DNA of 64,000 bases from Rhodobacterales bacterium (GCA_965217995.1 CBDCKB010000004.1:2123729-2187728); one strand, 5' to 3'. Counted from the stretch's first letter, positions 25,543-53,561 are shown. Numbers and translations: made by a program. Notes: generated by a model from the letters alone, not told the origin.

Positions 25543-26574
25543 CTAACTTGAAGTGATATCTTTTAAATCGTTAACACGTTTTATAAAGTCCGGGTCGTTG
25601 ACACGCGCTGCAAAAACTGTGTGCATGGCGCTAAGATGCTTCGCCAACCACTCGTGTTGTTCCGGCCAGCTCGCTCGATCTAAAAAATCAACATCATTCC
25701 GATAGAGCGAAATGGTTTCGGTCGAGCGTCTTGAGGCGGCATCCCATTCTAGTAACCCTCCCAATTCAAGTTCCAGCAATCTTCCCAATTCACGTTCGAT
25801 TTCCTCCTTTTCTCCGTGCAATAAAACCCACCAAAGCAAAGAATTCTTGCCTTGGGTATAAAGACTGCAGCGAAGCTTTTTTCTTGCACTCAATATTGAT
25901 GCCCTAAGGCTGATGTCAGAGCGTCCAATTCGGTATGTCATTGTCGCTTCAGATCTAGCCGAACGACTCATCAATTGTCCCTTTTGTGTATCAAGAAATT
26001 TGTTGAAATCTGTCCAGTAACTTAACTGCAGAAATTTATTCTTGGTAAGCGCTTCGTTACCCAAAATGCGTCCTGCATGTGTACCCAAGCGTGACCATTC
26101 ATTTGGCTTGGAGACGATGTTGAAATTTGGAGCCACGAGCGAACCGCCGATTTGCCATAGCTCAATTTCTAATCCAAAAAAACGTATGCTTTGGTCGGTT
26201 TTTGTGTTCCACCAATCGAGGGCCGCCTGGTGCTGCTCGTGAAACTGAGCGGCGATCCAGATGATCGTGGCAGCTTCCAAGCCGGAAGCATAGGTAAGGA
26301 GCTGCCCCAAATGGGTGTGGTCCGTTGTTTCCAGCTGGTTTTCGATGAGTACCATGTCTTGCTGCTCGCTGTACTCGTCCCTACACACAATGTCTGCCCG
26401 AAACGGTCCAACGGATTTTTCCGTTGCCACCAGTTTCAGCTGCATTCCCAATGCGTTCGAAAGGAGTTCCAAATTTTCTTCCTGCGCCAACCACGGAGTG
26501 AAGTCTCTTTCCTCGTCTTTCCAGTACTCGCGTACTTCAACTTTTGCAATCCGCCCAAGAGATCTATCTATCAC
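25543..26574 (-). CDS. nuclease-like N-terminal domain + DUF4268-type C-terminal domain protein (copy B, paralog)
   Basis: 343 aa; ..FRADIVC..VLIENQLETTDHTHLGQLLTY..; collinear with copy A along its full length. Confidence 0.75.
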   Translation of the reverse strand: MIDRSLGRIAKVEVREYWKDEERDFTPWLAQEENLELLSNALGMQLKLVATEKSVGPFRADIVCRDEYSEQQDMVLIENQLETTDHTHLGQLLTYASGLEAATIIWIAAQFHEQHQAALDWWNTKTDQSIRFFGLEIELWQIGGSLVAPNFNIVSKPNEWSRLGTHAGRILGNEALTKNKFLQLSYWTDFNKFLDTQKGQLMSRSARSEATMTYRIGRSDISLRASILSARKKLRCSLYTQGKNSLLWWVLLHGEKEEIERELGRLLELELGGLLEWDAASRRSTETISLYRNDVDFLDRASWPEQHEWLAKHLSAMHTVFAARVNDPDFIKRVNDLKDITSS

Positions 26575-28938: not shown

Positions 28939-29513
28939 CGCCTCCAGCGAAGGGTTTCTGCCTCGGTCACCACCGCATCCAGCAGCACGTCATGCCTGTC
29001 CCGCGGCACCTCCGCAATCTCCTGCGCAGCATAGGCAAACCCCACGGCCATGCGCAGTCTCCCCGCGGCCCGCAGGTTCTGCAGCGTACGGTCATAGAAA
29101 CCTCCGCCATAACCGAGACGCGCCCCGGACCGGTCCCATGCGAGAAGGGGAACAATCACCAGGGTCGGATCCCGGAACACCTCCGTGACCGGAACCCGGA
29201 CATCGAACGCTCCTGGCTGCAGTTCCGCCCCCGGCCGCCAGGCCAGAAACACCAGCGGGGCCCCCTTCCCCTCGACCCGCGGCACGCAGGTTTCGGCCCC
29301 GGCCCGGATCGCCCGTTCCAGCGCCGGAACCGGATCCAGTTCGGTGCGGACCGGCAGATAACCGGCCACGACATCGCCCGCGCCGGGGGCCAGGAGTTCG
29401 ACAAGCCTCGCACAGGCCGCCTGCGCCGCCTCCGGGCCGTCCCGGGCCGCCGCCTCGCGCCGCCCGGCGGCATCCGCCCGCTCGGCGCGCTTGCGCTCGG
29501 TCAGAGAATCCAT
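28935..29513 (-). CDS. 5-formyltetrahydrofolate cyclo-ligase
   Basis: ..ERKRAERA..VPLLAWDRSGARLGYGGGFYDRTL.. Confidence 0.85.
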   Translation of the reverse strand: MDSLTERKRAERADAAGRREAAARDGPEAAQAACARLVELLAPGAGDVVAGYLPVRTELDPVPALERAIRAGAETCVPRVEGKGAPLVFLAWRPGAELQPGAFDVRVPVTEVFRDPTLVIVPLLAWDRSGARLGYGGGFYDRTLQNLRAAGRLRMAVGFAYAAQEIAEVPRDRHDVLLDAVVTEAETLRWRR

Positions 29514-29622
29514 ACGGGGCTGTCCGCCATCGGGGGGATCATTGCACGGCCCTTCCGCGGCCCTCTCCCCGAAGCACCGGCCGCGCGTCCGGAATCCAGA
29601 GATTCAAAGCGGAGAGGAACGG

Positions 29623-29937
29623 TCAGCGTTCAAGACGTGTGACCAGATCCTGGATGCGACGCGATGCATCGAACATCGTTTCCGCAGCTTCGGCCGCCGC
29701 CTCCTGCTCGAGGGTCCGCTCGGATTCCACCTCTTCGAGCGCCTGGATCGCGGAGAGAAGAAGTAGCAGTTTCTCCGGCACATGCCCGAGCTCTTCCACC
29801 AGCATGACCGCACTGCGATCCAGGGCGGAAGCATGGTTGCGTACCGTTTCCTCCGAGCCTGCATCCGTGGAAATGACATAGCGACGCTTGTGGATACACA
29901 CTTCGATATCGTGCATTCCGCCAGACAGATCAGTCAT
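29623..29937 (-). CDS. zapA: cell division protein ZapA-like
   Basis: 104 aa; ..IEVCIHKRRYVISTDAGSEE..; position upstream of the cyclo-ligase matches the usual zapA synteny. Confidence 0.7.
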   Translation of the reverse strand: MTDLSGGMHDIEVCIHKRRYVISTDAGSEETVRNHASALDRSAVMLVEELGHVPEKLLLLLSAIQALEEVESERTLEQEAAAEAAETMFDASRRIQDLVTRLER

Positions 29938-30199
29938 TGCTGATTTTCCGGAGGATCCGTATCACCTGGTCCAGATTGCGGGCGGCATGCCGACGGATCC
30001 GCCGCTCTTCCCCCAGCTCCGCCCGCAGTTCGAGGATGGTTCTGTTCTGTGCCTGGCTGCTCTCGGTATCCCGATCAAGCCGCCCGATCACCGAGGATTC
30101 CAGCCCCCGCAGTGAATCGTCCAGAGCGGCAACCGCGTCGCGCAGCAATGCGCCCGGATCCTCCTCCTCCTCTTCGATCCTGTGCGCAACACCGGCCAT
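29930..30199 (-). CDS. DUF4164-like coiled-coil protein
   Basis: 89-aa charged helical ORF overlapping the zapA start by 8 nt. Confidence 0.5.
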   Translation of the reverse strand: MAGVAHRIEEEEEDPGALLRDAVAALDDSLRGLESSVIGRLDRDTESSQAQNRTILELRAELGEERRIRRHAARNLDQVIRILRKISND

Positions 30200-30277
30200 C
30201 GCATCCCACCATCCCTTTCCGGGGGTATCCCCCTATATCCCGATTCCCCGCCCGCCCGGCATGGGCCGGCCGGACCG

Positions 30278-30835
30278 TCACTCCGCAAGAATTTCGCGAT
30301 GGAGATCGGCCAGCCTGTGCCAGGGTTTCTCATCCCAATATCCGCGCGCCCGGCCGGAGGTCGAGGGGAGCACAAACAGTTCGGTGCCGTCCAGCCGATA
30401 CTCCGACTGCAACCCGTAATCCAGCACGTTCACGCCAAACCGCTTTTTCAGGAAAGCCTTCGCCGGCGTTTTCGCCGTGAAGGCAAGAATCCGGGGGCGA
30501 TATTTCTTGATCTTCGCGCTCAGGGCATCGACGTTGTAATGGTCGCGCGAAACTTCCTCATCACTGCCGAACTGGGTCTTGTTGAGATCGGTCAACCCGA
30601 TGCGCAAGGCGGCGAGTTCGGGGTATTGACCCGGGTCGAATTTCCGCGGCGTCAGGCCGATCTCCGCGAGAATTCCCCAGAATCGATTTCTTTCATGGGC
30701 GTAATACGCTCGTTGTTCCGCCGAGCGACGGCTGGCCGCGTTGCCGCAGAACACCGTCACCATGCCGGGTTCCAGGACATCCGGAAGAACATTTCCCGCC
30801 GATCCGCGGCCCGGTCGATTCGCAACTCTCGCCAT
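30278..30835 (-). CDS. uracil-DNA glycosylase superfamily protein (Mug/HDG-like), copy A
   Basis: ..VTVFCGNAAS..YYAHERNRFW..GLTDL..LPSTSGRA.. Confidence 0.65.
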   Translation of the reverse strand: MARVANRPGRGSAGNVLPDVLEPGMVTVFCGNAASRRSAEQRAYYAHERNRFWGILAEIGLTPRKFDPGQYPELAALRIGLTDLNKTQFGSDEEVSRDHYNVDALSAKIKKYRPRILAFTAKTPAKAFLKKRFGVNVLDYGLQSEYRLDGTELFVLPSTSGRARGYWDEKPWHRLADLHREILAE

Positions 30836-31095
30836 GCCTCAAGCCTCCCCGTTTCTGTCCGACCCGGCGCCCTGCCGGCTTATCGGTCGCCACCCTCCTT
30901 GAGGATGGTGTCGACCACGATCTTCGTTCGGTTGTCCTCACTATGCGGTCGACGCGTCGCGCAGCAATGCGCCCGAAGCCGAATCCTCCTCTGCGATCCT
31001 GTGCGCAACACCGGCCATCGCATCCCGCCATCCCTTTCCGGAAGCATCTCCTATATACCGATTCCCCGCCTGCCCGGCACGGCCCGGCCGGACCG

Positions 31096-31671
31096 TCACT
31101 CCGCAAGAATTTTGTGATGGAGAGCAGCCAGCTCGCGCCAGGGCGCCTCATCCCAATATTTGGGCTCCAGCTGGTCGGAGGTCGAGGGGAGCACAAACAC
31201 TTCGGTATCGCCCAGCCGACACTTCAACTGCATCCCGTAATCCTTCACGTTCCCCTTAAACGGCTCTTTCGGGAAAACCTTTTTCAGGAAAACCCTCGCC
31301 GACTTTTTCCCATTGAAGGCCAGAATCCGGGGGCGATATTTCTCGATCTTGCGGCACAGGGCACCGACATTGTAATGGCTGGGCGAAAGATTCCGATCAC
31401 TGCCAAACTGGGTCTTGTTGAGATCGGTCAGCCCGATGCGCAATTTAGCGAGTTTGGTGTATTCCTTCGGCTTGAATTTCCGCGGCGTCAGGCAGATCTC
31501 CGCGAGAATTCCCCAAAACAGATTGCTTTCATCGGCGTAATACTTCCCTTGTTTCGCCGAGCAGTTGCCGGCTGCGCTGCCGCAGAACACCGTCACCACG
31601 CCGGGTTTCAGGAGATCCGGAAGAACATCCCCCGTCGGTCCCTTGCCCGGTCGATTCGCAACCCCCGCCAT
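31096..31671 (-). CDS. uracil-DNA glycosylase superfamily protein, copy B (more diverged, AT-richer)
   Basis: ..VTVFCGSAAG..YYADESNLFW..GLTDL..LPSTSDQL.. Confidence 0.6.
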   Translation of the reverse strand: MAGVANRPGKGPTGDVLPDLLKPGVVTVFCGSAAGNCSAKQGKYYADESNLFWGILAEICLTPRKFKPKEYTKLAKLRIGLTDLNKTQFGSDRNLSPSHYNVGALCRKIEKYRPRILAFNGKKSARVFLKKVFPKEPFKGNVKDYGMQLKCRLGDTEVFVLPSTSDQLEPKYWDEAPWRELAALHHKILAE

Positions 31672-33098: not shown

Positions 33099-35153
33099 AT
33101 GCCAACCGCCCCCCTTCCGCCCGCTGTCCACGGACCAGCGCGTCACGCCCGTATGGCCGGTGCCCTGCGGGCCCTTGCCATCGACGCCGTCGAAAAGGCC
33201 CAGTCCGGCCATCCGGGCATGCCGATGGGCATGGCCGATGCGGTGACGGTCCTGTTCGACCGGCATCTGCGTGCCGATCCCGCCGCGCCGCGATGGCCGA
33301 ACCGGGACCGGTTCGTGCTCTCGGCCGGGCATGGCTCGATGCTGCTCTACGGACTCCTGCATCTGCTCGGCCATGCCGACATGCCGATGGCCGAACTGCG
33401 CCGCTTCCGCCAGCTCGGCGCGCGCACCGCCGGCCACCCGGAATACGGCCATGCCGCCGGCATCGAGACCACCACCGGGCCGCTCGGCCAGGGCCTGGCC
33501 GCCGCGGTCGGCATGGCCATGGGCGAGCGCTGGCTGCGCGAACGACTCGGCCGCAGGCTCATCGACCACCATGTCTATGTGGTCGTCGGCGATGGCTGCC
33601 TGATGGAGGGAATCAGCCATGAAGCGATCTCCCTCGCCGGCCATCTCGGACTCGGCAAGCTGATCGTGCTGTTTGACGACAATGGCATCTCGATCGACGG
33701 CGCGGTCTCGCTCGCCGACTCGACCGACCAGGCCGCGCGCTTCCGCGCCGCCGGCTGGGACGCCACATGCATTGACGGGCACGATCCGGAAGCCGTCCAC
33801 CGCGCCCTCGCGGAGGCCAAGCGCACCACCCGGCCGAGTCTGATCTGCTGTCGGACGACCATCGGACTGGGCGCCCCGGACAAGCAGGGCACCGCCGCCG
33901 CGCATGGCGCACCGCTCGGAGCCCCGGAGGCCCGGGCGGCAAAACAGGCCTATGGCTGGACCGAGCCTCCCTTCCGGATTCCGCACCGGGTGCTGCAGGA
34001 CTGGCGGGCGGCGGGACGGCGGAGCCACCGACGGCGCATCGCCTGGGAGCGGCATCTGCGGGAGCTTCCGAAATCCGCCCGCCGGCAGGCCGCGGTCTTT
34101 CTCGACGGGGCCATCCCACCGGAGTTCGGCCAGGAGATGCTCCGGCTGAAGCGGCGGCTTTCCCGGGAACGACCGAAACTCGCCACCCGCAAGGCGTCGG
34201 AACTGGCCCTCGAAGTGGTCAATGAACTGATCCCGACGACCCTCGGCGGCTCGGCCGACCTGACCGGCTCCAACAACACCCGCACCCGCGGTCTCGCCGC
34301 GATCACCCCCGAGGATTTCTCGGGCCGCTATGTGCATTGGGGAATCCGCGAGCATGCCATGGTCGCGGCCATGAGCGGCCTCGCCACCCAGGGCGGAATC
34401 ATTCCCTATAGCGGCACGTTCCTCGCCTTCACCGACTACGCACGGCCGTCCATCCGGCTGGCCGCCCTGATGGGCCTGCGGGCGATCTATGTGATGACCC
34501 ATGATTCGATCGGGCTGGGCGAGGACGGCCCCACCCACCAGCCGGTCGAGCATCTGGCGATGCTGCGGGCCACCCCCAACCTGCTCGTGTTCCGCCCCGC
34601 GGATGCGGTGGAGACCGTGGAAAGCTGGCAGCTGGCCCTCGAATCCCGCGATGCCCCCAGTGTGATCGTCCTCTCCCGACAGGGCCTCCCGACCGTTCGG
34701 GAGAAGCATCGCGCAGGAAATCTTTCCGCCCGGGGGGCCTATGTCCTGGCCGAGGCGGAGGGGGACTGCCAGGTGCTCCTGATCGCCACCGGCTCCGAGG
34801 TCAGCATCGCCATGGAGGCGCGCGGGAAGCTCCAGCAACGGGGGATTCCGACCCGGGTCGTCTCGATGCCCTGCGAGGAGCTGTTCCGCCGCCAGACCCC
34901 CGCCTGGCGGCGCAAGGTGCTGCCCTCCGGCCCCGTGCGGATCGCCATCGAGGCCGCGGCAGAACGGGGCTGGGAACGCTGGCTCTATGGCAGCGGCGGC
35001 AGCGAGGCAGGGAGCGCTTTCGTCGGCATGCGGTCCTTCGGGGCCTCGGCCCCGGCGCCGGACCTCTACCGGCATTTCGGAATCGACACCGGATCGGTGG
35101 TCCGCACGGCGCGGCGCCTGCTCCGGCAGTCCAAGATGGAGACCCCCTCATGA
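33099..35153 (+). CDS. tkt: transketolase
   Basis: ..[35 protein letters not shown].. Confidence 0.95.
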
Positions 35154-36166
35154 AGAAAGCAAGACTGGCCATCAACGGATTCGGCCGCATCGGCCGGTGC
35201 GTGCTCCGGGCGGTTGTGGAATCGGAACGCCAGGATCTCGAAGTGGTGGCGGTGAATGATCTCGGCCCAGCCGACTTCAACGCACATCTGCTCCGCTACG
35301 ATTCCGTGCACGGGCGCTTTCCGCACCCCGTCTCTGTCGACGGGGCGACGGGCAGCATGAATGTCGGCTTGGGCCCGATCCGGGTCACCGCCGAGCGCGA
35401 CCCGGCCCGGCTCCCCTGGGGGGAGATGGAGGTCGATGTGGTGCTCGAATGCACCGGCATCTTTGCCTCGCACGACAAGGCCGCCACGCATCTCGAAGCC
35501 GGTGCCCGCAAAGTCCTGATTTCGGCCCCGGCGGAGGGAGTCGCCAAGACCATCGTCTTCGGCGTCAATCACGAAATACTTGCCGACGGCGACCGCGTGG
35601 TCTCCAACGCCTCCTGCACCACCAACTGCCTGGCACCGGTGGCCCGGGTGCTGCATGAGAGCGTCGGCATCGAGCACGGCCATATGACCACGATCCACGC
35701 CTATACCGGCGACCAGCCGGCACTCGACACGCTGCACAAGGACCCCTATCGGGCCCGCGCCGCCGCGGTGTCCGCGATCCCGACCTCGACCGGGGCCGCG
35801 AAAGCGGTCGCCAAGGTGCTGCCCGAGCTCGCCGGGCGCCTCGACGGCGTGGCGATCCGTATCCCGACGCCCAATGTCTCGGCCGTCGACCTGACTTTCG
35901 TGCCCTCGCGCAAGACCACCGCCGAGGAGATCAACGAGGCGTTCCGGGCCGCCGCAGAAGGACCGCTGCGCGGCATCATGGCCTTCGACGAAGCCCCGAA
36001 AGTGTCGATCGACTACAACCACGACCCGCATTCCGCGAGCATCGCCGCGCCGCAGACGCGGATGGTCGGGGACCGGCTGGCCCGGGTCTTCGCGTGGTAT
36101 GACAATGAGTGGGGTTTCTCGAACCGGATGTGCGACACCGCCGCCGCACTCGCCCGGATGGAATGA
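35150..36166 (+). CDS. gap: glyceraldehyde-3-phosphate dehydrogenase
   Basis: ..[21 protein letters not shown]..; 4-nt overlap with the tkt stop. Confidence 0.95.
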
Positions 36167-36419
36167 ACGAACGCAGGTATCTGCCCCGGATCGGGGGAAG
36201 CCGAGGGACGCGCGGACGGAGTGCTGGGGTCTTCCCGTTCCGCCCGCGGCAATCCGCGGGATGACAGTTCAGGACTGATCCGCATCGCGGCGGGCAACCC
36301 GGGATCCCTGTCTGGTCCCTGCCGGGTGGATCGAGGTTCTCAAGCGGGAGGACAGCCGCCTCTTCCGGGGGCGGAGTTCGTCAAATTCCCCCTATGGCCG
36401 TCATCCTGCAGGCCCGCTG

Positions 36420-37568
36420 CTAGGCCGCCGTCACCAGCGTTTTCTTCGGATCATGGAAGGGCATCGGCACCACCACGGCACCCCGCTCCCCATCTGCGCA
36501 CGCAACCGTGAGGCGGGTTCCTTCCGCCGCCGTCGCGGTCGCGACCAAAGCCAGCGCAATGTTCTTCTTCAAGCGCGGCGAATGCACCACCGTGCTCGCA
36601 TGCCCGACCCTTTCCCCCTCCCGGAAAACCGGCCAGTGCTCCTCGTTGCCGGGGATCGGATCCCCCTCGATCTCGAGCCCGGCCAGACGCCGGGCGGGCG
36701 GGTGGGCGGCCAGTGCCTCCAGGGCCGGCCGGGCGAGATAGTCGAGGCCCTCCCCGAAGGAGACCAGCCGCGCGAGGCCGATCTCGAAGGGATTTTCCGT
36801 CAGCCCCATATCGTTGCCATAGGAGAGGATGCCCGCCTCGGTGCGGCGGATGGTCGACGGGCAGGCCGGGGCCACGCCATAGGGTTTGCCGGCCTCCATC
36901 AGCCGTTCCCAGAGCGTGTCGCCGAAACGGCCGTCGCGGAGAAACACCTCATAGCCGCGCTCGCCGCTCCAGCCCGTGCGCGAGACCAGGAGCGGCATGC
37001 CGTCGAGTTCGGTCTCGTAGAACCGGTAGTAGCGAAGTTCCCTGGCCTGCGGCCCGAACAGGTCCCCGATCAGATCGACGGCGCGAGGTCCCTGGACCTG
37101 CAGGGGGCTGACATCGGGCTCGCCGAGGGCCACATCCCAGCCACCGGCCGCGGCCAGCCCCTTGGCCCAGAGCAGCGCATCGCTGTCGGCGAGCGAGAAC
37201 CAGAACCGGTCGGGCGCAAGCCGCAGCGCGATCGGATCGTTGACGATCCCGCCCTGTTCGTCGGTGAGGAGGACGTATTTCGCCTGCCCGACCTCGAAGC
37301 CCGAAAGATCCCGGCAGGTGAGATACTGGGCGAAGCGCGCCGCGTCGGGGCCGCTGACCTCGAGCTGCCGCTCGCAGGCGACATCCCACACCGTCACCTT
37401 TTCAATGAGATTCCAGAAATCCGCTTCCGGGCTTTCATACCAGAGCGGCATCAAGGTGTGGTTGTAGACCGAATAGGCCTGCGCACCCCAGCGCCTTGTG
37501 GCTTCGTAGAACGGCGATTTCCGGACCCGAGGGGCGATTCCGAGGAGAGGCAGCGGCCTCTGCATCAA
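36420..37568 (-). CDS. aminomethyltransferase (GcvT/DmdA-like) family protein
   Basis: 382 aa; ..LQVQGP..SRTGWSGERGYEV.. Confidence 0.85.
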   Translation of the reverse strand: MMQRPLPLLGIAPRVRKSPFYEATRRWGAQAYSVYNHTLMPLWYESPEADFWNLIEKVTVWDVACERQLEVSGPDAARFAQYLTCRDLSGFEVGQAKYVLLTDEQGGIVNDPIALRLAPDRFWFSLADSDALLWAKGLAAAGGWDVALGEPDVSPLQVQGPRAVDLIGDLFGPQARELRYYRFYETELDGMPLLVSRTGWSGERGYEVFLRDGRFGDTLWERLMEAGKPYGVAPACPSTIRRTEAGILSYGNDMGLTENPFEIGLARLVSFGEGLDYLARPALEALAAHPPARRLAGLEIEGDPIPGNEEHWPVFREGERVGHASTVVHSPRLKKNIALALVATATAAEGTRLTVACADGERGAVVVPMPFHDPKKTLVTAA

Positions 37569-38173
37569 GGTCCCTTCCAGTCGACCTGACAGATTTCGGC
37601 ACTCCGCCCGGACAGGTTCCAGGCCCGTCCGGCCGCGCGCACGCGCCCCTCCAGGGCGGTGGCCACGACGATCTCCGGCGCGATCCAGTAGCGGGAATTC
37701 GTGACCGTCACCGGCTGGCCTTCGGCATTCCCCGGCACCGGCACCACCCGCCCCCGGATCCGCTTCGGCACTTCAATGATCCGCTCCTCGCCTTGGTTCT
37801 GGTAGCTGACCGGCGCACGCTCGGCACCGAGGAAATTCCCGACCAGCACCGAGAACAGACCGGTCGTGCCGCGCGCCTTGCCGCTCAGGATCCGGGTCAG
37901 CCCCTCAAAGGCAGGATCGTTCGCACGCTCGTCGATCCAGGCCGCGACCGACCAGTTCCCTTCGCTCATCCGCCCGGGGATGTCGATCAGAAAGGCGACG
38001 TTCAGCCCGGCCAGATCCTCGTCCCCCGTCTTTCCCTCATCGATCCGCAGCCCCGCCCAGGTCTGGCAGTAGCCCTGTGTCGGCGGATGTTCCCCCAGTG
38101 ACACCACGCACGGGCAGAACACCGTGCAATTGCAATTGAGCACCAATTCGCCCTTGATCGACCAGGAATCCAT
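37565..38173 (-). CDS. DUF1326 domain protein
   Basis: ..LNCNCTVFCPCV.. Cys-rich N-terminus; stop overlaps the downstream GcvT-like start (ATGA). Confidence 0.7.
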   Translation of the reverse strand: MDSWSIKGELVLNCNCTVFCPCVVSLGEHPPTQGYCQTWAGLRIDEGKTGDEDLAGLNVAFLIDIPGRMSEGNWSVAAWIDERANDPAFEGLTRILSGKARGTTGLFSVLVGNFLGAERAPVSYQNQGEERIIEVPKRIRGRVVPVPGNAEGQPVTVTNSRYWIAPEIVVATALEGRVRAAGRAWNLSGRSAEICQVDWKGP

Positions 38174-38185
38174 TCACTCTCTCCC

Positions 38186-39001
38186 CTAATCCACAACCGC
38201 CGCCCGGATGGCGACCGCCGCAGCAGCAGCCAAAAGTATCAGCGCAACCGTTCCGCGTATATGGTTGCGCGGACCCGGCAGCTTTTCCAGAACCATAATC
38301 CCCGTCGCCGCCACCATCCAGAGCGTATTCATCACGCCACCCACAAAAGCCAGCAGCATCAGCGCCCAGCAGCAGGCCGCGCAGAACATCCCCTGCTGCA
38401 GGCCCATCACCAGGGCACCGCCGGCACCGTCCCGCCAGCGGGCGAAGAAAAACCGGAACGGCTCGCGGCATTTCACGAGGCAGGCCTCCTTCCAGCTGGT
38501 CAGCTGGTAGCCGCCGGCCAGGGCCAGGAGCACGGCCACCGCCCAGGGCGTTTCCGCAATCCCGACCCGGTCGACCAGACCCTGTGCGTACAGCACCGTC
38601 TGCAGCGACGCCGCGAGAACGGCATAGCCGAGCCAGACGAGCAGATAGCCGGCGGCAAGAGCCGGCAGTCCCCCTTGAGGAGGCCGCCGGCCGCCGGCGC
38701 GACCGAGCCCGGCATAGACCGACAGGAACGGCACCGCGCCGGGCCCCATCATCGCGACGGCCATCAAGGACCACATCAGCAGGAGGGCCCGGAATTCCTG
38801 CGGCTCCGCTCCAGCGCGGCAGATCTCGCCCGCCCAGCGCAGAACCCCGAGCACGCCGGTGCCGCTCCCGGGATTCGAAAGCGACAGGGACATGCCGAGC
38901 AGGAGTGCCCAGGCAGCGAGGATGGCGGCGGTGAACACGCCCCAGAAACCGAAAGTCCGGTAGCCGCCAGCGGCGGCGGCCATGGTTCCGCCAACACTCA
39001 T
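38186..39001 (-). CDS. DUF2182 (predicted metal-binding integral membrane) protein
   Basis: Polytopic hydrophobic ORF. The start at the internal ATG (MSVGGTMAAAAGG) avoids overlap with the upstream gene. Confidence 0.65.
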   Translation of the reverse strand: MSVGGTMAAAAGGYRTFGFWGVFTAAILAAWALLLGMSLSLSNPGSGTGVLGVLRWAGEICRAGAEPQEFRALLLMWSLMAVAMMGPGAVPFLSVYAGLGRAGGRRPPQGGLPALAAGYLLVWLGYAVLAASLQTVLYAQGLVDRVGIAETPWAVAVLLALAGGYQLTSWKEACLVKCREPFRFFFARWRDGAGGALVMGLQQGMFCAACCWALMLLAFVGGVMNTLWMVAATGIMVLEKLPGPRNHIRGTVALILLAAAAAVAIRAAVVD

Positions 39002-39006
39002 TTCGT

Positions 39007-39867
39007 TCAGACCGCGGTTGCGCGCGCCAGTTCCAGATAGATCTCCCGCAGCCGGCACGTCAGCGGCCCTTGCCGGCCATTGGAGAGAATGCGCCCGTCG
39101 ACCGACACCACGCCGGTGACCAGGCCCCCGGCCGAGGTCAGGAACGCCTCCGCCGCCTCCTGCGCCTCCCCGGGCGTGAAGGGACGCTCCTCAATCTCGA
39201 TTCCGTTCTCCGCCGCCAGTCGCAGGACTGCCGCACGCGTGCACCCGGCCAGAATCGCCCGTGAGAGCGGCCGGGTGACGAGTTTGCCCGTCTCGGTGAC
39301 GATATAGACATTGTTCGACGTGCCCTCGGTGACAAAACCGTCCTCGACAAACCACGCATCATCCGCGCCGGCCTCGACCGCCGCCCGCTTGGCCAGCGAG
39401 GCGCCCAGGAGCGCGACAGTCTTGATATCGCGTCGCCCCCAGCGGATCTCCGGCACGGTAATGACCCGGATGCCGGATTCAGCCGAGGCCGCCCCGGCGA
39501 GGTCGATGATCTGGGTAAACATGAAAACGGTCGGGGGCAGCCCCGTGGGAGGCAGGAAATCGCGCTCGGCGACACCGCGCGAGACCTGGAGATAGACCAC
39601 CCCCCCCTCGAGGTGGTTCCGGCTGACAAGCTCCCGCATCCGGCCGAGGATTTCTGCATCCGTGTCGGGAAGGTCGATCTGAAGCTCGCCAAGCGAACGG
39701 CGCAGGCGGGCAAAATGGGACTCGGTATCGGTGAGCTTCCCCTCGAGTACCGCGCAGACCTCATAGATGGCATCGGCAAAGAGCACGGCGCGGTCGAAGA
39801 CCGAGATCCGGGCCTCGGATTGGGGGACAAACTCCCCGTTGACATACACGATCCGTTCGTCCGTCAT
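39007..39867 (-). CDS. class IV (D-amino-acid/branched-chain) aminotransferase
   Basis: ..YVNGEFVP..ISVFDR..YLQVSRG.. Confidence 0.85.
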   Translation of the reverse strand: MTDERIVYVNGEFVPQSEARISVFDRAVLFADAIYEVCAVLEGKLTDTESHFARLRRSLGELQIDLPDTDAEILGRMRELVSRNHLEGGVVYLQVSRGVAERDFLPPTGLPPTVFMFTQIIDLAGAASAESGIRVITVPEIRWGRRDIKTVALLGASLAKRAAVEAGADDAWFVEDGFVTEGTSNNVYIVTETGKLVTRPLSRAILAGCTRAAVLRLAAENGIEIEERPFTPGEAQEAAEAFLTSAGGLVTGVVSVDGRILSNGRQGPLTCRLREIYLELARATAV

Positions 39868-39952
39868 GATCCATCAATCCCCCGTCCTCACAGCAGTGTC
39901 AAGCGAAAATTGTATTTGCAGAAATTTATTCTAAAATCCTTTTCCATCTACC

Positions 39953-39988
39953 CTATATCTATATCTATATCCATAGATATAGATATAG
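39953..39988. repeat. perfect AT-rich palindrome, 16-bp arms with a 4-nt centre
   Basis: ctatatctatatctat-atcc-atagatatagatatag, read directly; built from (CTATAT)n hexamers. Confidence 0.9.
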
Positions 39989-40094
39989 CAGTTGCGCTTC
40001 AGAGAAGCAGCTAGTATACACTGTCGTGACCGAGAGCAACAACTAGGAGCACAGTCATGGCCCAGCTATCGAAGAACGCACCGACCGACCAAGC

Positions 40095-40480
40095 GCACGG
40101 AAGACTCCAGCAATCGGAGATTCCGACCCGGATCGCCTCGATCCCCCGGAAGGAGCTGTACCTCCGCCAAGCCCCCGCCCAGCAGCGCAAGGTGCTGCCG
40201 CCTCCCAGCCCCGTGCAGACCACCATCGAGGCCGGGGCAGAGCGAAACGGGGAGTGCTGGCTCTATGGCAGCGGCAGCAGCGAGGCAGAGAGTGCTTTCG
40301 TCGGCATACAGTCCTTCGATGCCTCGGCCTCGGTGCTGTACCTCTGCCGGCATTTCGGGACCGACACGGTCGCTGCGGAAGACGAGAAATCCGAGAAGCC
40401 CGGCACCAAATCCCCGCGAAAGCAGGAGCATGGGAGAGCGCAAGGAATTCGGAGAACCGAATGTTCAACCGAAAAGATCA
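40095..40480 (+). pseudogene. relic copy of the tkt 3' end (and probably the tkt-gap junction)
   Basis: 40098-40385 aligns by eye to tkt 34828-35110. The translation ..IPTRIASIPRKELY..RKVLP..WLYGSGSSEAESAFVG..RHFGTD parallels the tkt C-terminus. Confidence 0.7.
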
Positions 40481-40764
40481 AGCGCAAGAAAAACGCCGAG
40501 AGGGCAGTGAAAAACGCAGAGATTCACGCCCGGCAAACTGACCTGAATTACATGCGGTTGCGGAACAGGCAGAGGCAGAACCGGCAACGGCGGAAGTCAA
40601 AAAAATTACTTCCGAGACGAAAGTCCCGTATGTGTTTGGGTGTCGGCAGGACTGCCCGTCCCCCCTGACCCACCGACCGCAGGGCCGGGAACTCCTCCAT
40701 GCCCCTCCCGCCGAATGAGGCCAGAAACATCCACATGCCCGGCACTTCCGGTATAGAAGCGGGC

Positions 40765-41796
40765 ATGACGACGGAACCCGCTCAGAACCCTGGAGGGGAG
40801 AAGGGCCACCTGCTCGTGACGGGCGGTGCCGGCTATATCGGCAGCCATGTGGCGCTGGCCTGTCTGGAGGCTGGCTACCGGATCGTGGTCCTCGACAACC
40901 TCTCCGCCGGGCATCCCTCCATGGTGCCGACGGCCTGCCATTTCATCGACGGCGATGCCGACGACCGCAACACCGTCCGCGCGATCCTCGCCGAGCACCC
41001 CATCAACGCCGTGGTGCATCTGGCTGCCAGTATCAGCGTCCCCGAATCCATGCGGGATCCTCTCCGCTACTACCGCAACAATACCGCTGCCAGCGCCAAC
41101 CTGATCCAGACCTGCATCGAGGCCGGAATCGGACAGTTTGTCTTTTCGTCAACGGCCGCCGTCTACGGCGCGCCCGACATCATCCCGGTATCCGAATCCG
41201 CCCCGACCCTTCCGGTCAACCCCTATGGCCGTTCGAAACTCGCCACCGAATGGGCCTTGCGGGATACCGCCGCCGCCCATGATTTCCGCTATGTCGCGCT
41301 CCGCTACTTCAACGTCGCCGGAGCCGACCCCCACGGGCGGGCCGGGCCGCACACAGGAGGCGCCACACATCTGATCACGGTTGCCTGCGAGGCCGCCGTC
41401 GGACTGCGCGACCACATCACCGTGTTCGGCACCGATTACAGCACCGCCGACGGCACCTGCGTGCGCGACTACATCCATGTCTCCGATCTTGCCGGAGCGC
41501 ATCTCGCCGCCCTTGACGATCTCAAGGCCGGCGGCACCAGCCGGGTCCTCAACTGCGGCTACGGCACCGGCCATTCCGTCCGCGAGGTGCTCGAAGCGGT
41601 GCAGGCCGAATCCGGAATCCGTCTCGACATCCGCGAGGGGGAGCGGCGGGCGGGCGACCCGCCGGCACTGGTCGCCGATACCCGCCAGATCCACGAGGCC
41701 CTGCGCTGGACCCCCCGCCACGACGATCTCCGCAGCATCGTCCGCAGCACGCTTGCCTGGAGTGAAGCATCCCTCCGCGCCGGAAAGCCGGAATAA
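40765..41796 (+). CDS. galE: UDP-glucose 4-epimerase
   Basis: ..LLVTGGAGYIGSH..; YxxxK SDR pattern; 343 aa. Confidence 0.9.
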   Translation: MTTEPAQNPGGEKGHLLVTGGAGYIGSHVALACLEAGYRIVVLDNLSAGHPSMVPTACHFIDGDADDRNTVRAILAEHPINAVVHLAASISVPESMRDPLRYYRNNTAASANLIQTCIEAGIGQFVFSSTAAVYGAPDIIPVSESAPTLPVNPYGRSKLATEWALRDTAAAHDFRYVALRYFNVAGADPHGRAGPHTGGATHLITVACEAAVGLRDHITVFGTDYSTADGTCVRDYIHVSDLAGAHLAALDDLKAGGTSRVLNCGYGTGHSVREVLEAVQAESGIRLDIREGERRAGDPPALVADTRQIHEALRWTPRHDDLRSIVRSTLAWSEASLRAGKPE

Positions 41797-43122: not shown

Positions 43123-43652
43123 CCGCGAAACCGGCGCACGAGCAGCACGAAGGGGGCGAGCAGCGGCAGAATCATCAGGAGCTTGACCGCCAGATCGGTG
43201 GCGGCCCATTGCACCCAGCTGCCGCCGCTGCCGGCAAAGGCGAGGCTGTAGAACAGCGCCGTGTCGATCGTGCTCGCCACCGCCGAAGACAGTACCGGAG
43301 CGCGCCACCAGAGCCCCTTGCGGAGGCGGTCGAAGACCTCGACATCGACCAGCTGCCCGACCAGGAAGGCGGTCCCGGAAGCCAGCGCAATGCGCGGCCC
43401 CGCGATCACGGCCGAGGCCGCCACGGCGAGCACGAAACTCACCCAGACCACGCGCCGGGCGGCCACGGGTCCGAACAGCCGGTTGATCAGGTCGGTGACC
43501 AGGAAGGCCAGCGGAAAGACGAAATGGCCCCAGGTCAGCCAGTCATTGATGGGATGCAGCACCGCGTAATTGGCGGCCGCGACCACCGCCGCCATCGCCA
43601 GGATGCCCCCGACCAGTGCCCCTCGGGACACGGAAGGCGTTTCTTCCTGCAT
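43110..43652 (-). CDS. VUT/YhhQ family (queuosine precursor transporter-like) membrane protein
   Basis: Start MQEETPS inside ORF 43110..43712; ..FPLAFLVTDLINR..STIDTALF.. Confidence 0.7.
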   Translation of the reverse strand: MQEETPSVSRGALVGGILAMAAVVAAANYAVLHPINDWLTWGHFVFPLAFLVTDLINRLFGPVAARRVVWVSFVLAVAASAVIAGPRIALASGTAFLVGQLVDVEVFDRLRKGLWWRAPVLSSAVASTIDTALFYSLAFAGSGGSWVQWAATDLAVKLLMILPLLAPFVLLVRRFRGQRR

Positions 43653-43860
43653 CTGGACCTCCTCCTTCCCGGACCGGCACCTGCCCCGCCGGTCCGGTGC
43701 AAATCTGCACATATGGATGGCACACCGGTCCGGCGGAGGGCCGGCAAAGATGCTATCCTGTCAGGCCGACATTCGCTGGCAGGGCCCTTCCGTGGAAGCC
43801 ACCCGGGGCCCTGGACAGAGGGCCGTGTCCGACGACATGTCCGACCACAAGGGGGGAACC

Positions 43861-45204
43861 ATGACCGACTATCAATCCGGCAGCGACCACATCGCGACCA
43901 ACTCTCTCGAAGAGCAGTGGATGCCCTTCTCCGACAACCGGGGCTTCAAGCAGGCCCCGCGCATCGTGGATGAGGGCCATGGGATGTATCTGACCGACCA
44001 CCGGGGCGAGCACCTGCTCGACGGCAGTTCGGGACTGTTCTGCTGCCCGGCCGGCAATTCCCGTCCGGAGATCACCGAAGCGGTGTACCACCAGATGCAG
44101 CGCAACAGCTACGCACCCCCGTTCCAGATCGGCACCAAGCCCGCCTTCGCCGCCGCCGAGCGGGTCGCGCGGCTGCTGCCCGAGCCGATGAACCATGTGT
44201 TCTTTGTCAATTCCGGCTCGGAGTCGATCGATACCGCACTCAAGATCGCCATGGCCTATCACCGGGCCCGAGGCGAAGGCCAGCGGGTCCGCTTCGTCTC
44301 ACGCGAGCGCGCCTATCACGGCGTCAATATCGGCGGAACCTCCCTGTCCGGCCTGGTCAAGAACCGCGAGACCTTCTCCGGTGTCATGCCCCATGTCGCG
44401 TTCATGCGCCACACCTGGCTGGAGAAAAACCGCTTCGAGCGCGGCCAGCCGACGCATGGCACGGAACTGGCCGAGGATCTGCAGCGCATCGTCAACACCT
44501 TTGGCGGCAGCACGATCGCCGCATGTTTCGTGGAACCGGTGGCGGGCTCCTGCGGCTGTCTGATCCCTCCCAAAGGCTATCTCGAGCGGCTGCGCGAGAT
44601 CTGCGACGAGAACGGGATCCTGCTGGTGTTTGACGAGGTGATCTGCGGCTTCGGCCGGCTCGGGGCTCCTTTCGGGGCCGATCTCTTTGGCGTGATCCCG
44701 GATGTGATCACCATGGCCAAGGCACTGACCAACGGGGCCATCCCGATGGGTGCGGTCGGGGTGCGGGATGAAATCTACGAGACCGTCACCGAGGCGGCCC
44801 CGGACAACGCCATCGAGTTCTTCCACGGCTACACCTATTCCGGCCATCCAGTCGCCTCGGCCGCCTGCGTCGCGGCCCTTGATATCTACGAGAGGGAGAA
44901 TCTGTTCGAGCGGGTGAAAGAGAATGAGGCGTATTTCCTCGACGGGATCTGGAGCCTGCGCGACCACCCGTTGGTGACCGATATCCGCGGCATCGGCCAT
45001 TTTGCCGCAGTGGATATCGCTTCCGCCCCCGGCATGCCGGGGCAACGCGGTCCGGAGGTGCAGAAGGACCTGTTCCTGAACGGCCTGCATGTGAAATTCA
45101 CCGGCGACTGCGCACTCCTGGCCCCGGCCTTCACGGCCGAGCGGAAGCATTTCGATGAACTCGTGACCCTCCTCCAGGGCGGGCTCGACCGCATCCCGGC
45201 CTGA
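43861..45204 (+). CDS. class III (omega) aminotransferase, beta-alanine/pyruvate type (alternative start 43837)
   Basis: ..FVNSGSESIDTALK..FDEVICGFGRLG.. Confidence 0.9.
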   Translation: MTDYQSGSDHIATNSLEEQWMPFSDNRGFKQAPRIVDEGHGMYLTDHRGEHLLDGSSGLFCCPAGNSRPEITEAVYHQMQRNSYAPPFQIGTKPAFAAAERVARLLPEPMNHVFFVNSGSESIDTALKIAMAYHRARGEGQRVRFVSRERAYHGVNIGGTSLSGLVKNRETFSGVMPHVAFMRHTWLEKNRFERGQPTHGTELAEDLQRIVNTFGGSTIAACFVEPVAGSCGCLIPPKGYLERLREICDENGILLVFDEVICGFGRLGAPFGADLFGVIPDVITMAKALTNGAIPMGAVGVRDEIYETVTEAAPDNAIEFFHGYTYSGHPVASAACVAALDIYERENLFERVKENEAYFLDGIWSLRDHPLVTDIRGIGHFAAVDIASAPGMPGQRGPEVQKDLFLNGLHVKFTGDCALLAPAFTAERKHFDELVTLLQGGLDRIPA

Positions 45205-45216
45205 TCCCGGCACCCC

Positions 45217-46140
45217 ATGCTGGCGACCGAGCCGGTCCGGTTTCCCGATGCCCTGCGGGAGGGTGCACGCGGCGGAGTGCCGACCCGCGCCCTGGTGGTC
45301 GGCGCGCATGCCCCGCATGTGCTGGAGGGCGTGCGCCGGGCGGTCGGGGAGGACTGGATCGAACCTGTCCTGATCGGACCGCCGGACGGCATCCAGCACG
45401 CGGCCGACAAGATCGGATGGGATCCGGTCGGGATTGAAACCCTCCCCGCAGAGGGCGAAGCGGAAATGGCCGCCGCGGCGACCCGGGCCGCCCCTTCCTG
45501 CGGCATGGTGATCAAGGGGCATATCCACACTTCGGCACTGCTCGGTGCGCTGCTGCGCAAGGAGGCCGGGGTCCGTACCGGCGGCGGCCTCGCGCATGTG
45601 TTCTACCTCACCCATCCCGACAGCCCGCGAGGGCTGGCGGTCGCCGACGGCGCGTTGAACATCGCGCCCGACCTGGAAATGCGGAAGCAGATCCTCCGGC
45701 TCCTCGCCGGGCTGCTGCGGATCCTCGGAACCCCGCGTCCGCGCATTGCCATTCTCGCCGCCACCGAGGAGGTGGCTCCCCAGATGCCGGTGACGCTGGA
45801 GGCGAAGGCGCTCGCCGACTGGGCGGAGGAGGAGGGGCTCGAGGCCGAGGTGCACGGCCCCCTGGCCCTCGACGCGGCCCTGTCCCCGGTGGCAGCCAGG
45901 ATCAAGGGCATCGAATCACCGGTGGCGGGAGCCGCGGATGGATTGCTGGTGCCGGACATCGAGACCGGCAATGCGGTGGTCAAGACGCTGATCTGGTGCC
46001 GCGCTGCCTGCGCGGCCGGAATCGTTCTCGGCGGGCGGATTCCGGTTCTGGTGCCCAGCCGCAGCGACCCCCCGGAGGCGCGGCTTGCGGCGACCGCCCT
46101 GGCACGCATCGTCGCCCGCCATGGAGACAGCGGCTCCTGA
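45217..46140 (+). CDS. phosphate acetyl/butyryl transferase family protein
   Basis: ..MVIKGHIHT..IAILAATE..VPDIETGNAV.. Confidence 0.7.
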   Translation: MLATEPVRFPDALREGARGGVPTRALVVGAHAPHVLEGVRRAVGEDWIEPVLIGPPDGIQHAADKIGWDPVGIETLPAEGEAEMAAAATRAAPSCGMVIKGHIHTSALLGALLRKEAGVRTGGGLAHVFYLTHPDSPRGLAVADGALNIAPDLEMRKQILRLLAGLLRILGTPRPRIAILAATEEVAPQMPVTLEAKALADWAEEEGLEAEVHGPLALDAALSPVAARIKGIESPVAGAADGLLVPDIETGNAVVKTLIWCRAACAAGIVLGGRIPVLVPSRSDPPEARLAATALARIVARHGDSGS

Positions 46141-46165: not shown

Positions 46166-47734
46166 TCAGCCCGGGCGCATGACCTCCCGCGGCAGTTTGA
46201 TATCGAAACTCCCGCGGATCCGGGCATCCATCTCCTCACTGACATAATCCGGGAAATGCCCGTCGAGGATCTCGCGCTTGCGCTGGGTGGCCCGGTCCAG
46301 AATGTCGAGACGTCCTTCCTCCGCCCATTCCTTGGGGGATGTCCGGTCGGCGATCTCGGGATAGATGTATTCGCTCTGCATCAGCTTCAGGGTCTGGTCC
46401 GAGCCCAGATAATGGCCCGGCCCGTTGAGGCAGACCTCGCGGATGGTGTCCACCGAGCAATTTTCCTCGTTCACCTCGATTCCGCGCAGGCACCGCAGAC
46501 CCGCGCCCAGCATGTCGTTGTCGATGAGCAGGGATTCGGGCGAAAAGCCGAGCAGAGAAGCATGCATGCCGGCGGCCTCATAGACCATGTTGACGCCGGA
46601 AAGGCCCGCCATGACCGTGGTCATGCCCTTCTCGTAGCCGGATTGCGCGTCGGGCAGTTTGGCGTCGGCCATGCCGGCCGCGGAGGCGGTCGGAAGTCCG
46701 TAGAAACGCCCCATCTGCCCGCAGGCCGCGGTCAGCAGGGACTGCTCGCCGGAGCCCCCGGACATCGCCCCGGTCCGCAGATCGGAGACAAAGGGCCAGG
46801 AACCGGCGACGACCGGATGGCCCGGAGAGATGGCGTTCACATAGAGCAGTCCGGTGATGGCCTCGGCAAAGGCCTGTGCCACCGCCCCGGCGATCGCGGC
46901 CGGTGCCGTGGCGCCGGCCTGCCCGGCCGACAGGGCCAGAATCGGCACGCCGGCCCGCGCCCCCGCCTCCAGCACCGCGCAGGAATCCCAGGCGAATTTC
47001 AGAGGCGGCACGACAAAGCAATTCGCGTTGCTGATGAACGGCTTTCTCCGCCAGGCAGCCTCGCCGCCCGCGACGCAATGCAGCAGTTCGATCACCCCCT
47101 TGAACGTGGTGCTGTCATTGATGGACATGCCGACATGCTTGCGGATGCCGGCCAGGCAGACATAGGCGGTGTTGATATCGAGGTCGAGCGGGGTGGGCAT
47201 GTCCCGCGCGATCAGCGGGCGCTGGAAGTAGTGGATGTTGTCGCAGAGATCGGCAATGCGGGCCGCATCGTAGAGGTCGCGGAGCATGGATTCGCGGTAT
47301 TCCCGCTTCTCGAGATCGACGACATGGACCGCCGCCCCGCCCGTGCCGTAATAGGCCCGGTCCCCGCAGGGATTGATGTCATAGGCCGGGTCGCGTGCAT
47401 ACCAGACAAAATCCCGGTTGGCCGCGGCGATGGCGTCCTCGACCAGGGCGCGGGGAAACCGTATCCGGCCGGTTTCCGAATCCTGGATCGCACCCGCACC
47501 GATCAGGGTCCGGGCCGTGAAATCGGGGGCTTCGCCGAAACCGATCTCTTCGAGAATGCGGAGGACGGCCTGGTGGATCTGCTCGATGCCGGCGGCATCG
47601 AGGGGGCCCTGCCCCGGGCTCGACATGCCCGGCCGGACCGGGCGCAGATCCGCCGCCAGGGGGGCGGTACGTATCTCACGGCGCGCACGGCGCCCGCCGG
47701 CACGGCGTGGCGCGCTACCGGAAGATGAAGCCAT
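46166..47734 (-). CDS. trimethylamine methyltransferase (MttB) superfamily protein, non-pyrrolysine type
   Basis: 522-aa uninterrupted ORF; ..IHQAVLRILEEIG..LSAGQAGATAP..YLGSDQTL.. Confidence 0.9.
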   Translation of the reverse strand: MASSSGSAPRRAGGRRARREIRTAPLAADLRPVRPGMSSPGQGPLDAAGIEQIHQAVLRILEEIGFGEAPDFTARTLIGAGAIQDSETGRIRFPRALVEDAIAAANRDFVWYARDPAYDINPCGDRAYYGTGGAAVHVVDLEKREYRESMLRDLYDAARIADLCDNIHYFQRPLIARDMPTPLDLDINTAYVCLAGIRKHVGMSINDSTTFKGVIELLHCVAGGEAAWRRKPFISNANCFVVPPLKFAWDSCAVLEAGARAGVPILALSAGQAGATAPAAIAGAVAQAFAEAITGLLYVNAISPGHPVVAGSWPFVSDLRTGAMSGGSGEQSLLTAACGQMGRFYGLPTASAAGMADAKLPDAQSGYEKGMTTVMAGLSGVNMVYEAAGMHASLLGFSPESLLIDNDMLGAGLRCLRGIEVNEENCSVDTIREVCLNGPGHYLGSDQTLKLMQSEYIYPEIADRTSPKEWAEEGRLDILDRATQRKREILDGHFPDYVSEEMDARIRGSFDIKLPREVMRPG

Positions 47735-53448: not shown

Positions 53449-53561
53449 ATTCTTTCAGTTGCAAAATTTATTATATACTCACCAACCAGGAAAGGGGTAT
53501 ACATGATACACGCGACTCTCCCATATCTTAATGCATCATGAATCTAGTTGCAACATCAATT

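Follow-up and report, generated by a model that had tools for sequence, protein, structure and literature searches.

The stretch analysed here (the window) is a 64,000-nucleotide segment of a Rhodobacterales bacterium (GCA_965217995.1 CBDCKB010000004.1:2123729-2187728), and the element under study is a compact four-gene operon on its minus strand. The first gene (39007..39867, minus strand; 286 residues) encodes a class IV aminotransferase resembling D-amino-acid transaminases (Pfam Aminotran_4, E = 2e-43). It is followed by a dmdE-like gene (38186..39001, minus strand; 271 residues) for a polytopic membrane protein of family PF09948 (DUF2182 / COG5486 / PpoB2; E = 7e-53), and by a dmdF-like gene (37565..38173, minus strand; 202 residues) for a soluble DUF1326 protein (Pfam DUF1326, E = 2e-47). 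The last gene is dmdA-like (36420..37565, minus strand; 381 residues); its product contains GCV_T (E = 2e-47) and GCV_T_C (E = 7e-19) domains and is predicted to be a tetrahydrofolate (THF)-dependent methyltransferase of the GcvT fold. We refer to the two middle products as DmdE and DmdF, and to their gene pair as E-F.

All four open reading frames (ORFs) were found where an earlier annotation made without database searches (the sequence-only reading) had placed them, as were gaps of 5 and 12 nt between the first three. The junction of the aminotransferase and dmdE genes reads TGA-acgaa-ATG, giving the 5-nt gap; an alternative dmdE start at the next ATG (38983), which is the start called in a 99%-identical metagenome contig, would shorten the protein to 265 residues and widen the gap to 23 nt. 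The dmdE and dmdF genes are joined by TAG-gggagagagtga-ATG, a 12-nt gap that contains a Shine-Dalgarno-like GGGAGAG run. The last junction had been described as a 4-nt ATGA overlap; a stop/start overlap is indeed present, but the sequence is cCTTGATGcag, in which the A is common to the TGA stop of dmdF and the following ATG (1-nt overlap), whilst use of the TTG as start codon would instead give a 4-nt TTGA overlap. Tight packing is also seen in a related genome (L082), with gaps of 7 nt and 45 nt and then a 4-nt overlap, the stop/start overlap of dmdF and the dmdA-like gene being kept at 74% protein identity; in a further relative (L004) the gap downstream of the aminotransferase gene is 7 nt. 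Such spacing is ordinary for bacterial operons and not unusual in itself. The 3′ end of the operon is convergent with the genes for glyceraldehyde-3-phosphate dehydrogenase (GAPDH) and transketolase, and its 5′ end is preceded by an 830-bp intergenic region, on the other side of which are a galE-like gene, divergently oriented, and a gene for a DAO-family oxidoreductase. It is all but certain that the four genes are transcribed as a single unit, in agreement with the co-transcription proposed previously.

The product of the last gene has the architecture of DmdA, the dimethylsulfoniopropionate (DMSP) demethylase (EC 2.1.1.269), which yields MMPA and 5-methyl-THF, as seen in the proteins from Pelagibacter ubique (SAR11_0246, PDB 3TFH) and Ruegeria pomeroyi (SPO1913): a GCV_T folate-binding domain is followed by a GCV_T_C barrel, and the length fits the approximately 370–385 residues of DmdA. 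Its best match in the PDB is P. ubique DmdA (3tfh, E = 1e-77, 265 bits), with GcvT well behind (E = 5e-40, 141 bits), and among NCBIfam models it scores highest on the DmdA equivalog NF009133 (386.4 bits), the next being trimethylamine N-oxide (TMAO) demethylase (206 bits). Ruegeria DmdA reaches 700 bits on NF009133. The closest homologues of the window protein (55–75% identical) score 382–422 bits, straddling the curated cutoff of that model, and relatives in the clade overall score 359–422 bits; members above the cutoff carry the NCBI name DMSP demethylase. Identity over trimmed alignment columns is 35% to P. ubique DmdA, 40–45% to Roseobacter DmdA and 28–31% to GcvT. Three motifs (NDP, S[IL]ADSD and LSYGxD) and a two-residue deletion are common to the window protein and to P. 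ubique and Roseobacter DmdA; they are absent from GcvT, TMAO demethylase and a dimethylglycine dehydrogenase (DMGDH)-like domain. The THF-dependent, GcvT/DmdA-like identity assigned by the sequence-only reading is therefore upheld, the protein being much nearer to DmdA than to GcvT.

Neighbour-joining trees (200 bootstraps), with GcvT, TMAO demethylase and DMGDH as outgroups that unite at 99–100% bootstrap, place the protein relative to DmdA, GcvT and the dimethylglycine enzymes in a DmdA-like clade apart from characterised DmdA. The window protein thus shares the motifs and indel of DmdA, yet lies outside the well-supported group of characterised enzymes and under the NF009133 cutoff. A tryptophan that has been called DMSP-specific (W171 in the numbering of PMC7487153, equivalent to W197 of 3TFH) was considered as a diagnostic residue. 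It is present in the window protein; however, the position is occupied by tyrosine in most Roseobacter DmdA of dmdR-regulated operons, as well as in GcvT, so the residue does not discriminate and we set it aside.

DmdE scores 179.7 bits against PF09948 (gathering cutoff 28.7), a family that now carries the Pfam name 'PpoB2 copper chaperone'. Residues invariant across 34 homologues form a Met/Cys pattern, comprising MWxxMxxxMM (M76, W77, M80, M84 and M85), C174-x3-C178 and C207-x2-C210-C211, together with M215, M224, M229, M236 and E239. The AlphaFold2 (AF2) model of DmdE is all-alpha (mean confidence, pLDDT, 86) and matched no PDB fold at E <= 0.001; searches of the PDB with the DmdE and DmdF sequences likewise returned nothing significant. 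Across 30 homologues of DmdF, C14, C16, C20, C22, C36, C195 and H29 do not vary; the Cys-rich NCNCTVFCPCV motif noted earlier is present, and its four cysteines are among these positions. Homologues from Rhodobacterales, Hyphomicrobiales and Rhodospirillales share 63–77% identity with DmdF. The AF2 model of DmdF is an all-beta barrel (pLDDT 87) with a low-confidence Cys-rich loop (residues ~20–35). The best fold matches are weak, being to acetoacetate-decarboxylase-like barrels (E = 5e-5); with template-modelling (TM) scores of 0.42–0.47, that is below 0.5, we keep these as a hint of fold and not as homology. No peroxidase or catalase fold was among the matches of the DmdF fold search.

Genes for DUF2182 and DUF1326 proteins have recently been named dmdE and dmdF in Ruegeria lacuscaerulensis ITI-1157 as well as in further Roseobacters (Fu et al., EMBO J 2026, PMC12992908). 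In the published operon, dmdE-dmdF-(dinB)-dmdA-acuI, expression is repressed by a divergently encoded GntR/FadR regulator, DmdR. Mutants in either dmdE or dmdF do not grow on DMSP, both genes being needed for the demethylation route, and the dmdE mutant is partly rescued by deletion of dmdA; DmdE is not a DMSP transporter, and purified DmdF consumes H2O2 (PMC12992908). Genes resembling dmdEF also occur away from DMSP genes in Beta- and Gammaproteobacteria and in Actinomycetes (PMC12992908). A physiological role had been given to a DUF2182 (COG5486) protein before, PpoB2 of Marinomonas mediterranea being the first member of the family to receive one: the tyrosinase PpoB1, encoded in the same operon, is the specific recipient of the copper that it transfers (PMC2855505). 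The pair can thus no longer be called uncharacterised, as the sequence-only reading had it, given the names and DMSP growth phenotypes of dmdE and dmdF (PMC12992908) and the DUF2182 role established through PpoB2 (PMC2855505). Nor is the module undescribed, since the linkage of DUF2182, DUF1326 and a demethylase is already in print (PMC12992908); the idea of a membrane/metal pair coupled to a DmdA-like THF enzyme was sound at its core, and it is the novelty attached to it that falls.

Comparison with these two systems is informative in both directions. As in the Roseobacter dmdR/dmdEF-dmdA-acuI operons, the window has a DUF2182 and then a DUF1326 gene directly upstream of a co-directional gene for a DmdA-type GcvT-fold protein, and window and Roseobacter DmdF are 63–68% identical. 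The window differs in lacking a divergent dmdR of the GntR/FadR type, dmd boxes, dinB and acuI; its demethylase belongs to another clade (40–45% identical), its E-F pair lies on a non-Roseobacter branch, and an aminotransferase gene leads its operon. As for PpoB1/PpoB2, DmdE of the window is in the same Pfam family (PF09948), the operon neighbour is again a soluble partner, and the invariant Met/Cys motifs appear compatible with handling of Cu(I). The partner is a tyrosinase in Marinomonas, whereas that of the window DmdE is a Cys-rich DUF1326 beta-barrel protein; copper transfer is published for PpoB2 alone among these proteins, the role of DmdE being left open by Fu et al. (PMC12992908). What is new at the present locus is a second DmdA-like clade associated with dmdEF, the lack of DmdR, acuI and dinB, and an E-F pair from outside the Roseobacter branch.

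The conservation of this neighbourhood was surveyed by scanning the window DUF1326 protein against one genome per GTDB species and keeping the best 80 loci, which are 63–71% identical to the query and derive mostly from Rhodobacterales, with some Roseibium and Hyphomicrobiaceae. Nine reference proteins were mapped onto these loci by tblastn, and domain content was checked in Ruegeria intermedia (L019), which has the published architecture. DUF2182 is directly upstream of DUF1326 in approximately 78 of the 80 loci, the exceptions being a few loci cut by contig ends. A Roseobacter-type DmdA is encoded within ~2 kb downstream in 55 of the 80, a divergent DmdR is present in 62, and acuI occurs without dmdA in a further 17; the commonest architecture is dmdR< dmdE> dmdF> (dinB>) dmdA> acuI>. 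The survey reproduces the published picture, and the linkage of the DUF pair, and of the pair with DmdA, is far from a chance juxtaposition.

A neighbour-joining tree of DmdF groups the window and its nearest relatives (six genomes; see below) in a clade with 100% support, sister to two Hyphomicrobiaceae genomes and then to Dongia mobilis. Both Hyphomicrobiaceae carry E-F alone among unrelated genes; in D. mobilis the pair lies downstream of a two-component system and upstream of an AMP-ligase gene. E-F therefore acts as a two-gene unit complete in itself, which has been combined with DmdA-type genes from two separate clades. This joining to two clades supports a functional tie; conversely, the stand-alone pairs and the demethylase-free sister genomes of the window imply that the pair is not restricted to a role with a demethylase.

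The six genomes of the window lineage (L001, the close strain of the window, with L082, L004, L002, L133 and L134) share the gene order (Aminotran_3, Vut_1, DAO<) aminotransferase> dmdE> dmdF> ... GAPDH< Tkt<. L002 and L004 are, like the window, labelled Rhodobacterales bacteria at NCBI. A DmdA-like gene is present at the locus in window/L001, in L082 (DmdF 77% identical) and in L004 (69%). These three demethylases are monophyletic (88–89% bootstrap), so the gene was probably present ancestrally at the locus and then lost three times. In L002 (metagenome-assembled genome (MAG) Rhodobacterales OZ244777.1, 5731-6986) the aminotransferase gene and dmdE are ~1.3 kb apart, and the interval contains two long ORFs on opposite strands, neither of which has a Pfam match.

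The aminotransferase itself exceeds the cutoff of the NCBIfam 'D-amino-acid transaminase' subfamily model NF005209 (372 versus 320) and falls short of that of the equivalog TIGR01121 (220 versus 277), and is thus related to D-amino-acid transaminase (Dat) among the fold type IV pyridoxal-phosphate enzymes at the level of subfamily and not of equivalog. It contains the motifs ...RRDIK(149)T..LLG..LAK... and E181-G-T-S-N, in which K149 and E181 presumably match the catalytic lysine and glutamate of the Bacillus D-amino-acid aminotransferase. Linkage of the aminotransferase gene to E-F was found only in the six syntenic genomes. A metagenome scan recovered 45 loci with aminotransferase homologues (43 at 45–59% identity and two at 23–31%), and in none of them was a dmdE, dmdF or DmdA-like gene present within 6 kb; one of the 45 had a DAO-family match nearby, which was distant (32%). 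A pyruvate kinase gene is near the homologue in 14 of 23 longer loci, others having rplT, accA or ABC-F genes. The linkage of the aminotransferase is no better conserved than the surrounding synteny (DAO, Vut_1, Aminotran_3, GAPDH and Tkt) and so carries no independent functional signal. We had considered the aminotransferase as the variable element and the demethylase as the constant one; within this lineage the sister genomes show the reverse. We take local gene order to be what brings the aminotransferase gene into this transcript, and its product probably has no mechanistic share in the module. These results do not bear out the proposed functional 'sandwich' of four parts, the aminotransferase being linked only in six syntenic genomes, three of which have no GcvT-like gene, and in none of the 45 metagenome loci; similarly, a D-amino-acid or methylated-amine substrate finds no specific support.

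Further contexts of the demethylase clade come from plasmids. A tblastn search of PLSDB identified members 50–52% identical to the window protein and inside its clade. On Phaeobacter inhibens plasmid pP30_b (L136, NZ_CP010619.1 58660-65856) the cluster encodes a SELENBP-family protein, a 2Fe-2S protein, a CoA-binding protein, a rhodanese, an MBL-fold hydrolase, an enoyl-CoA hydratase, an acyl-CoA synthetase and the GcvT-like protein; on Loktanella salsilacus plas1 (L137) it is reduced to the GcvT-like protein, OsmC, an enoyl-CoA hydratase and an acyl-CoA synthetase. The clade member of Lichenihabitans psoromatis is flanked by metF, purU and folD, and the adjacent metF fits a 5-methyl-THF product. 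In kind, the plasmid contexts are similar to the pathway of DMSP demethylation, combining methyl transfer to THF, CoA activation, hydration, and sulfur/peroxide handling. They share with the window the same demethylase clade and adjoining oxidative-stress or sulfur genes (OsmC; SELENBP-like protein and rhodanese); they differ in having acyl-CoA synthetase and enoyl-CoA hydratase genes and no dmdEF, whereas the window has dmdEF and no CoA-pathway genes. The DmdA-like genes of pP30_b and plas1 are not called by the NCBIfam DmdA model, and the plasmid cluster may be a pathway parallel to dmdABCD, so far undescribed, that breaks down a sulfonium or thioether acid.

Taking these observations together, we regard it as reasonably probable that the last three genes of the four-gene operon are a variant of the published dmdE-dmdF-dmdA module. 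In the mechanism that we envisage, the GcvT-fold enzyme would move a methyl group from a sulfonium substrate to THF, giving 5-methyl-THF; to judge from its family and context, DMSP or a close analogue is the most likely substrate. DmdE, as a Met/Cys-rich membrane protein, and DmdF, as a soluble protein with six invariant cysteines, would form a two-gene accessory unit; PpoB2 and its tyrosinase suggest by analogy that DmdE may supply DmdF with a thiophilic metal, for example copper. The aminotransferase would merely accompany them through the local gene order of an uncultured, Rhodobacterales-labelled lineage. The genetic requirement for E-F in the demethylation route and the removal of H2O2 by DmdF rest on work with Ruegeria lacuscaerulensis (PMC12992908).

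Several observations weigh against this assignment. The 386.4 bits of the window protein lie under the curated NF009133 cutoff of 410, and in the trees P. ubique and Roseobacter DmdA join each other at 99–100% bootstrap whilst the window protein falls in a third group outside them; moreover, DmdA-like paralogues that are non-functional, or without an assigned DMSP activity, are known from the literature, among them SPO1648, which Fu et al. cite as non-functional. Three of the six genomes keep the aminotransferase-E-F arrangement without the demethylase (L133, L134 and L002, with DmdF 74%, 71% and 71% identical, respectively), and the nearest outside relatives of the window E-F, in Hyphomicrobiaceae and Dongia, carry the pair without any DMSP gene. 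No dmdB, dmdC, dmdD, acuI, dmdR or dinB was found in the 64-kb window. Elsewhere, five other members of the demethylase clade on long contigs stand alone. The plasmid ligase is not a DmdB orthologue (288 versus 822 bits), nor is the plasmid SELENBP-like protein an MtoX orthologue (151 versus 650 bits), and the support from the plasmids accordingly covers 'DMSP or a closely related compound' and not DMSP specifically.

Two other explanations must be set beside this one. The E-F pair could be a general metal-handling or oxidative-stress unit, with the operon the product of accidental insertion at a syntenic hot spot and its three functions independent of one another. The stand-alone pairs of the Hyphomicrobiaceae, the Dongia pair beside its two-component system and AMP-ligase genes, the loss of the demethylase from three sister genomes, the dmdEF-like genes away from DMSP genes in Beta- and Gammaproteobacteria and Actinomycetes (PMC12992908), and flanks that are rearranged even between 98%-identical strains are all in keeping with such a view. 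Chance nonetheless explains poorly why E-F should be joined to two distinct types of DmdA, the Roseobacter type in 55 of the 80 surveyed loci and the clade of the window protein in the window, L082 and L004. The stop/start overlap between dmdF and the dmdA-like gene persists at 74% protein identity, and the monophyly of the three demethylases at the locus (88–89%) indicates retention since a common ancestor as opposed to recent random insertion; the genetics of Ruegeria, in addition, show that dmdE and dmdF are specifically required for the demethylation route (PMC12992908). We consider three unconnected functions an unlikely explanation.

Alternatively, all four genes might serve a single pathway for a methylated amino compound, such as S-methylmethionine, another amino-sulfonium or a methylated D-amino acid, with the GcvT-like enzyme demethylating it to THF, the aminotransferase converting the amino acid product or precursor, and DmdEF acting as an accessory or protective pair. 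The aminotransferase stop is only 5–7 nt (up to 23 nt with the alternative start) from dmdE in window/L001, L082 and L004, and the demethylase groups apart from proven DmdA and scores under the cutoff of the DmdA hidden Markov model (HMM). Residues constant in proven DmdA are changed in it (C-Y-Y-x-P to [AC]-K-Y-V-L-L, and IERIE to IRRIE), and the Lichenihabitans clade member is near genes for an amino-acid aminotransferase, an FAD oxidoreductase and an amino-acid ABC transporter. Set against this are the survival of aminotransferase-E-F without the demethylase in L002, L133 and L134, the housekeeping neighbours of the homologues at the 45 metagenome loci, where E, F and A are missing within 6 kb, and an aminotransferase linkage that merely equals the conservation of the whole surrounding synteny; furthermore, none of the other demethylases examined from this clade is encoded beside a class IV aminotransferase. 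A joint four-gene pathway is, in our view, quite improbable.

The favoured assignment, a variant of the published dmdE-dmdF-dmdA module, bears on a process of some importance, as DMSP demethylation is a major marine route for sulfur and carbon, to which dmdE and dmdF were tied only in 2026. If the clade of the window protein does demethylate DMSP, surveys that use the current cutoff of the DmdA model undercount demethylators, and the requirement for E-F would be a property of the chemistry and not of Roseobacter regulation. The conserved Cys/Met motifs and the PpoB2 precedent also suggest a role for DmdE that can be put to the test. For now, the locus is an incremental extension of a published system. 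A bolder version, to which we give little credence, would make E-F a portable unit of membrane metallochaperone and Cys-cluster client that at least two distinct clades of THF-dependent sulfonium demethylases have recruited independently, with the clade of the window protein as a second, unrecognised demethylase family (for DMSP or an analogue) missed by HMM cutoffs. Were this so, DmdF might detoxify a by-product specific to the chemistry by means of its metal or thiols, as opposed to removing peroxide generically, and in this lineage the co-transcribed aminotransferase could point to an amino-sulfonium, for instance S-methylmethionine, as the substrate.

The intergenic region upstream of the operon (39868..40698, no strand assigned), the presumed site of its promoter, varies between strains. 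In L001, which is 98–98.5% identical to the window, ~1.9 kb of unrelated DNA, including a Type_ISP_C fragment, takes the place of the segment corresponding to 39891-40729, whose near end lies 24 nt upstream of the aminotransferase start codon. The window region also contains, at 40093-40367, a 275-bp degenerate copy (82% identical) of the 3′ end of tkt (compare 34818-35089), and the region upstream of the operon looks like a hot spot of local rearrangement. A perfect 16-nt inverted repeat (39953-39968 / 39973-39988; CTATATCTATATCTAT / ATAGATATAGATATAG) with a 4-nt spacer lies in an AT-rich patch ~90–120 nt upstream of the aminotransferase start. It was considered as a conserved operator and rejected, as the sequences preceding the aminotransferase gene of L001, L082, L133 and L134 lack it.

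A scan with the sigma-70 consensus revealed no promoter in the upstream region, and terminator-like matches were at chance level; an Rfam scan of 35900-41000 (E <= 0.1) returned no family and no riboswitch. The R. pomeroyi dmd-box sequence gave matches at chance level only, none of them upstream of the operon, and tblastn with Ruegeria AcuI found no acuI in the 64-kb window (E <= 1e-8, >= 50% coverage). As DmdR, dinB and acuI are lacking at the locus, regulation must differ from that of the Roseobacter system.

The rest of the window is largely of a housekeeping character (dnaE, purine genes, a TRAP transporter, tkt, gap, hflKC and degP). Approximately 6 kb from the operon there is a gene for a methyltransferase of the MTTB superfamily (46166-47734, minus strand; 522 residues), a superfamily that includes glycine-betaine and other quaternary-amine methyltransferases. 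Beside it are genes for a class III aminotransferase (43570-45204, plus strand) and a PTA_PTB-family protein (45217-46140, plus strand), and this synteny is kept in L082. Three tandem paralogues of the uracil-DNA-glycosylase superfamily (PF03167; 185–186 residues each) occupy ~29480-31671 on the minus strand (L001 15896-18087) and adjoin a gene for an alpha/beta-hydrolase-OsmC fusion; L082 has one copy only. Two adjacent DUF4268 paralogues (24331-25368 and 25543-26574, minus strand) form a low-GC island (GC 47% versus ~66% for the window; GC at third codon positions, GC3, ~0.5) that was probably acquired horizontally. At 52174-57481 (minus strand), three tandem family-4 glycosyltransferase paralogues (422–425 residues) and an FkbM-type methyltransferase gene lie within a low-GC (49–54%) stretch reaching ~62 kb, and this region is probably a polysaccharide-synthesis island. 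Outside the window, in a Hyphomicrobiaceae genome (L003, MAG JAWKVX010000002.1, 10145-11743), a 532-residue ORF that fuses an RVT_1 reverse transcriptase (RT) to a TIR domain and adjoins a patatin-like phospholipase gene looks like a defence-type RT-TIR gene.

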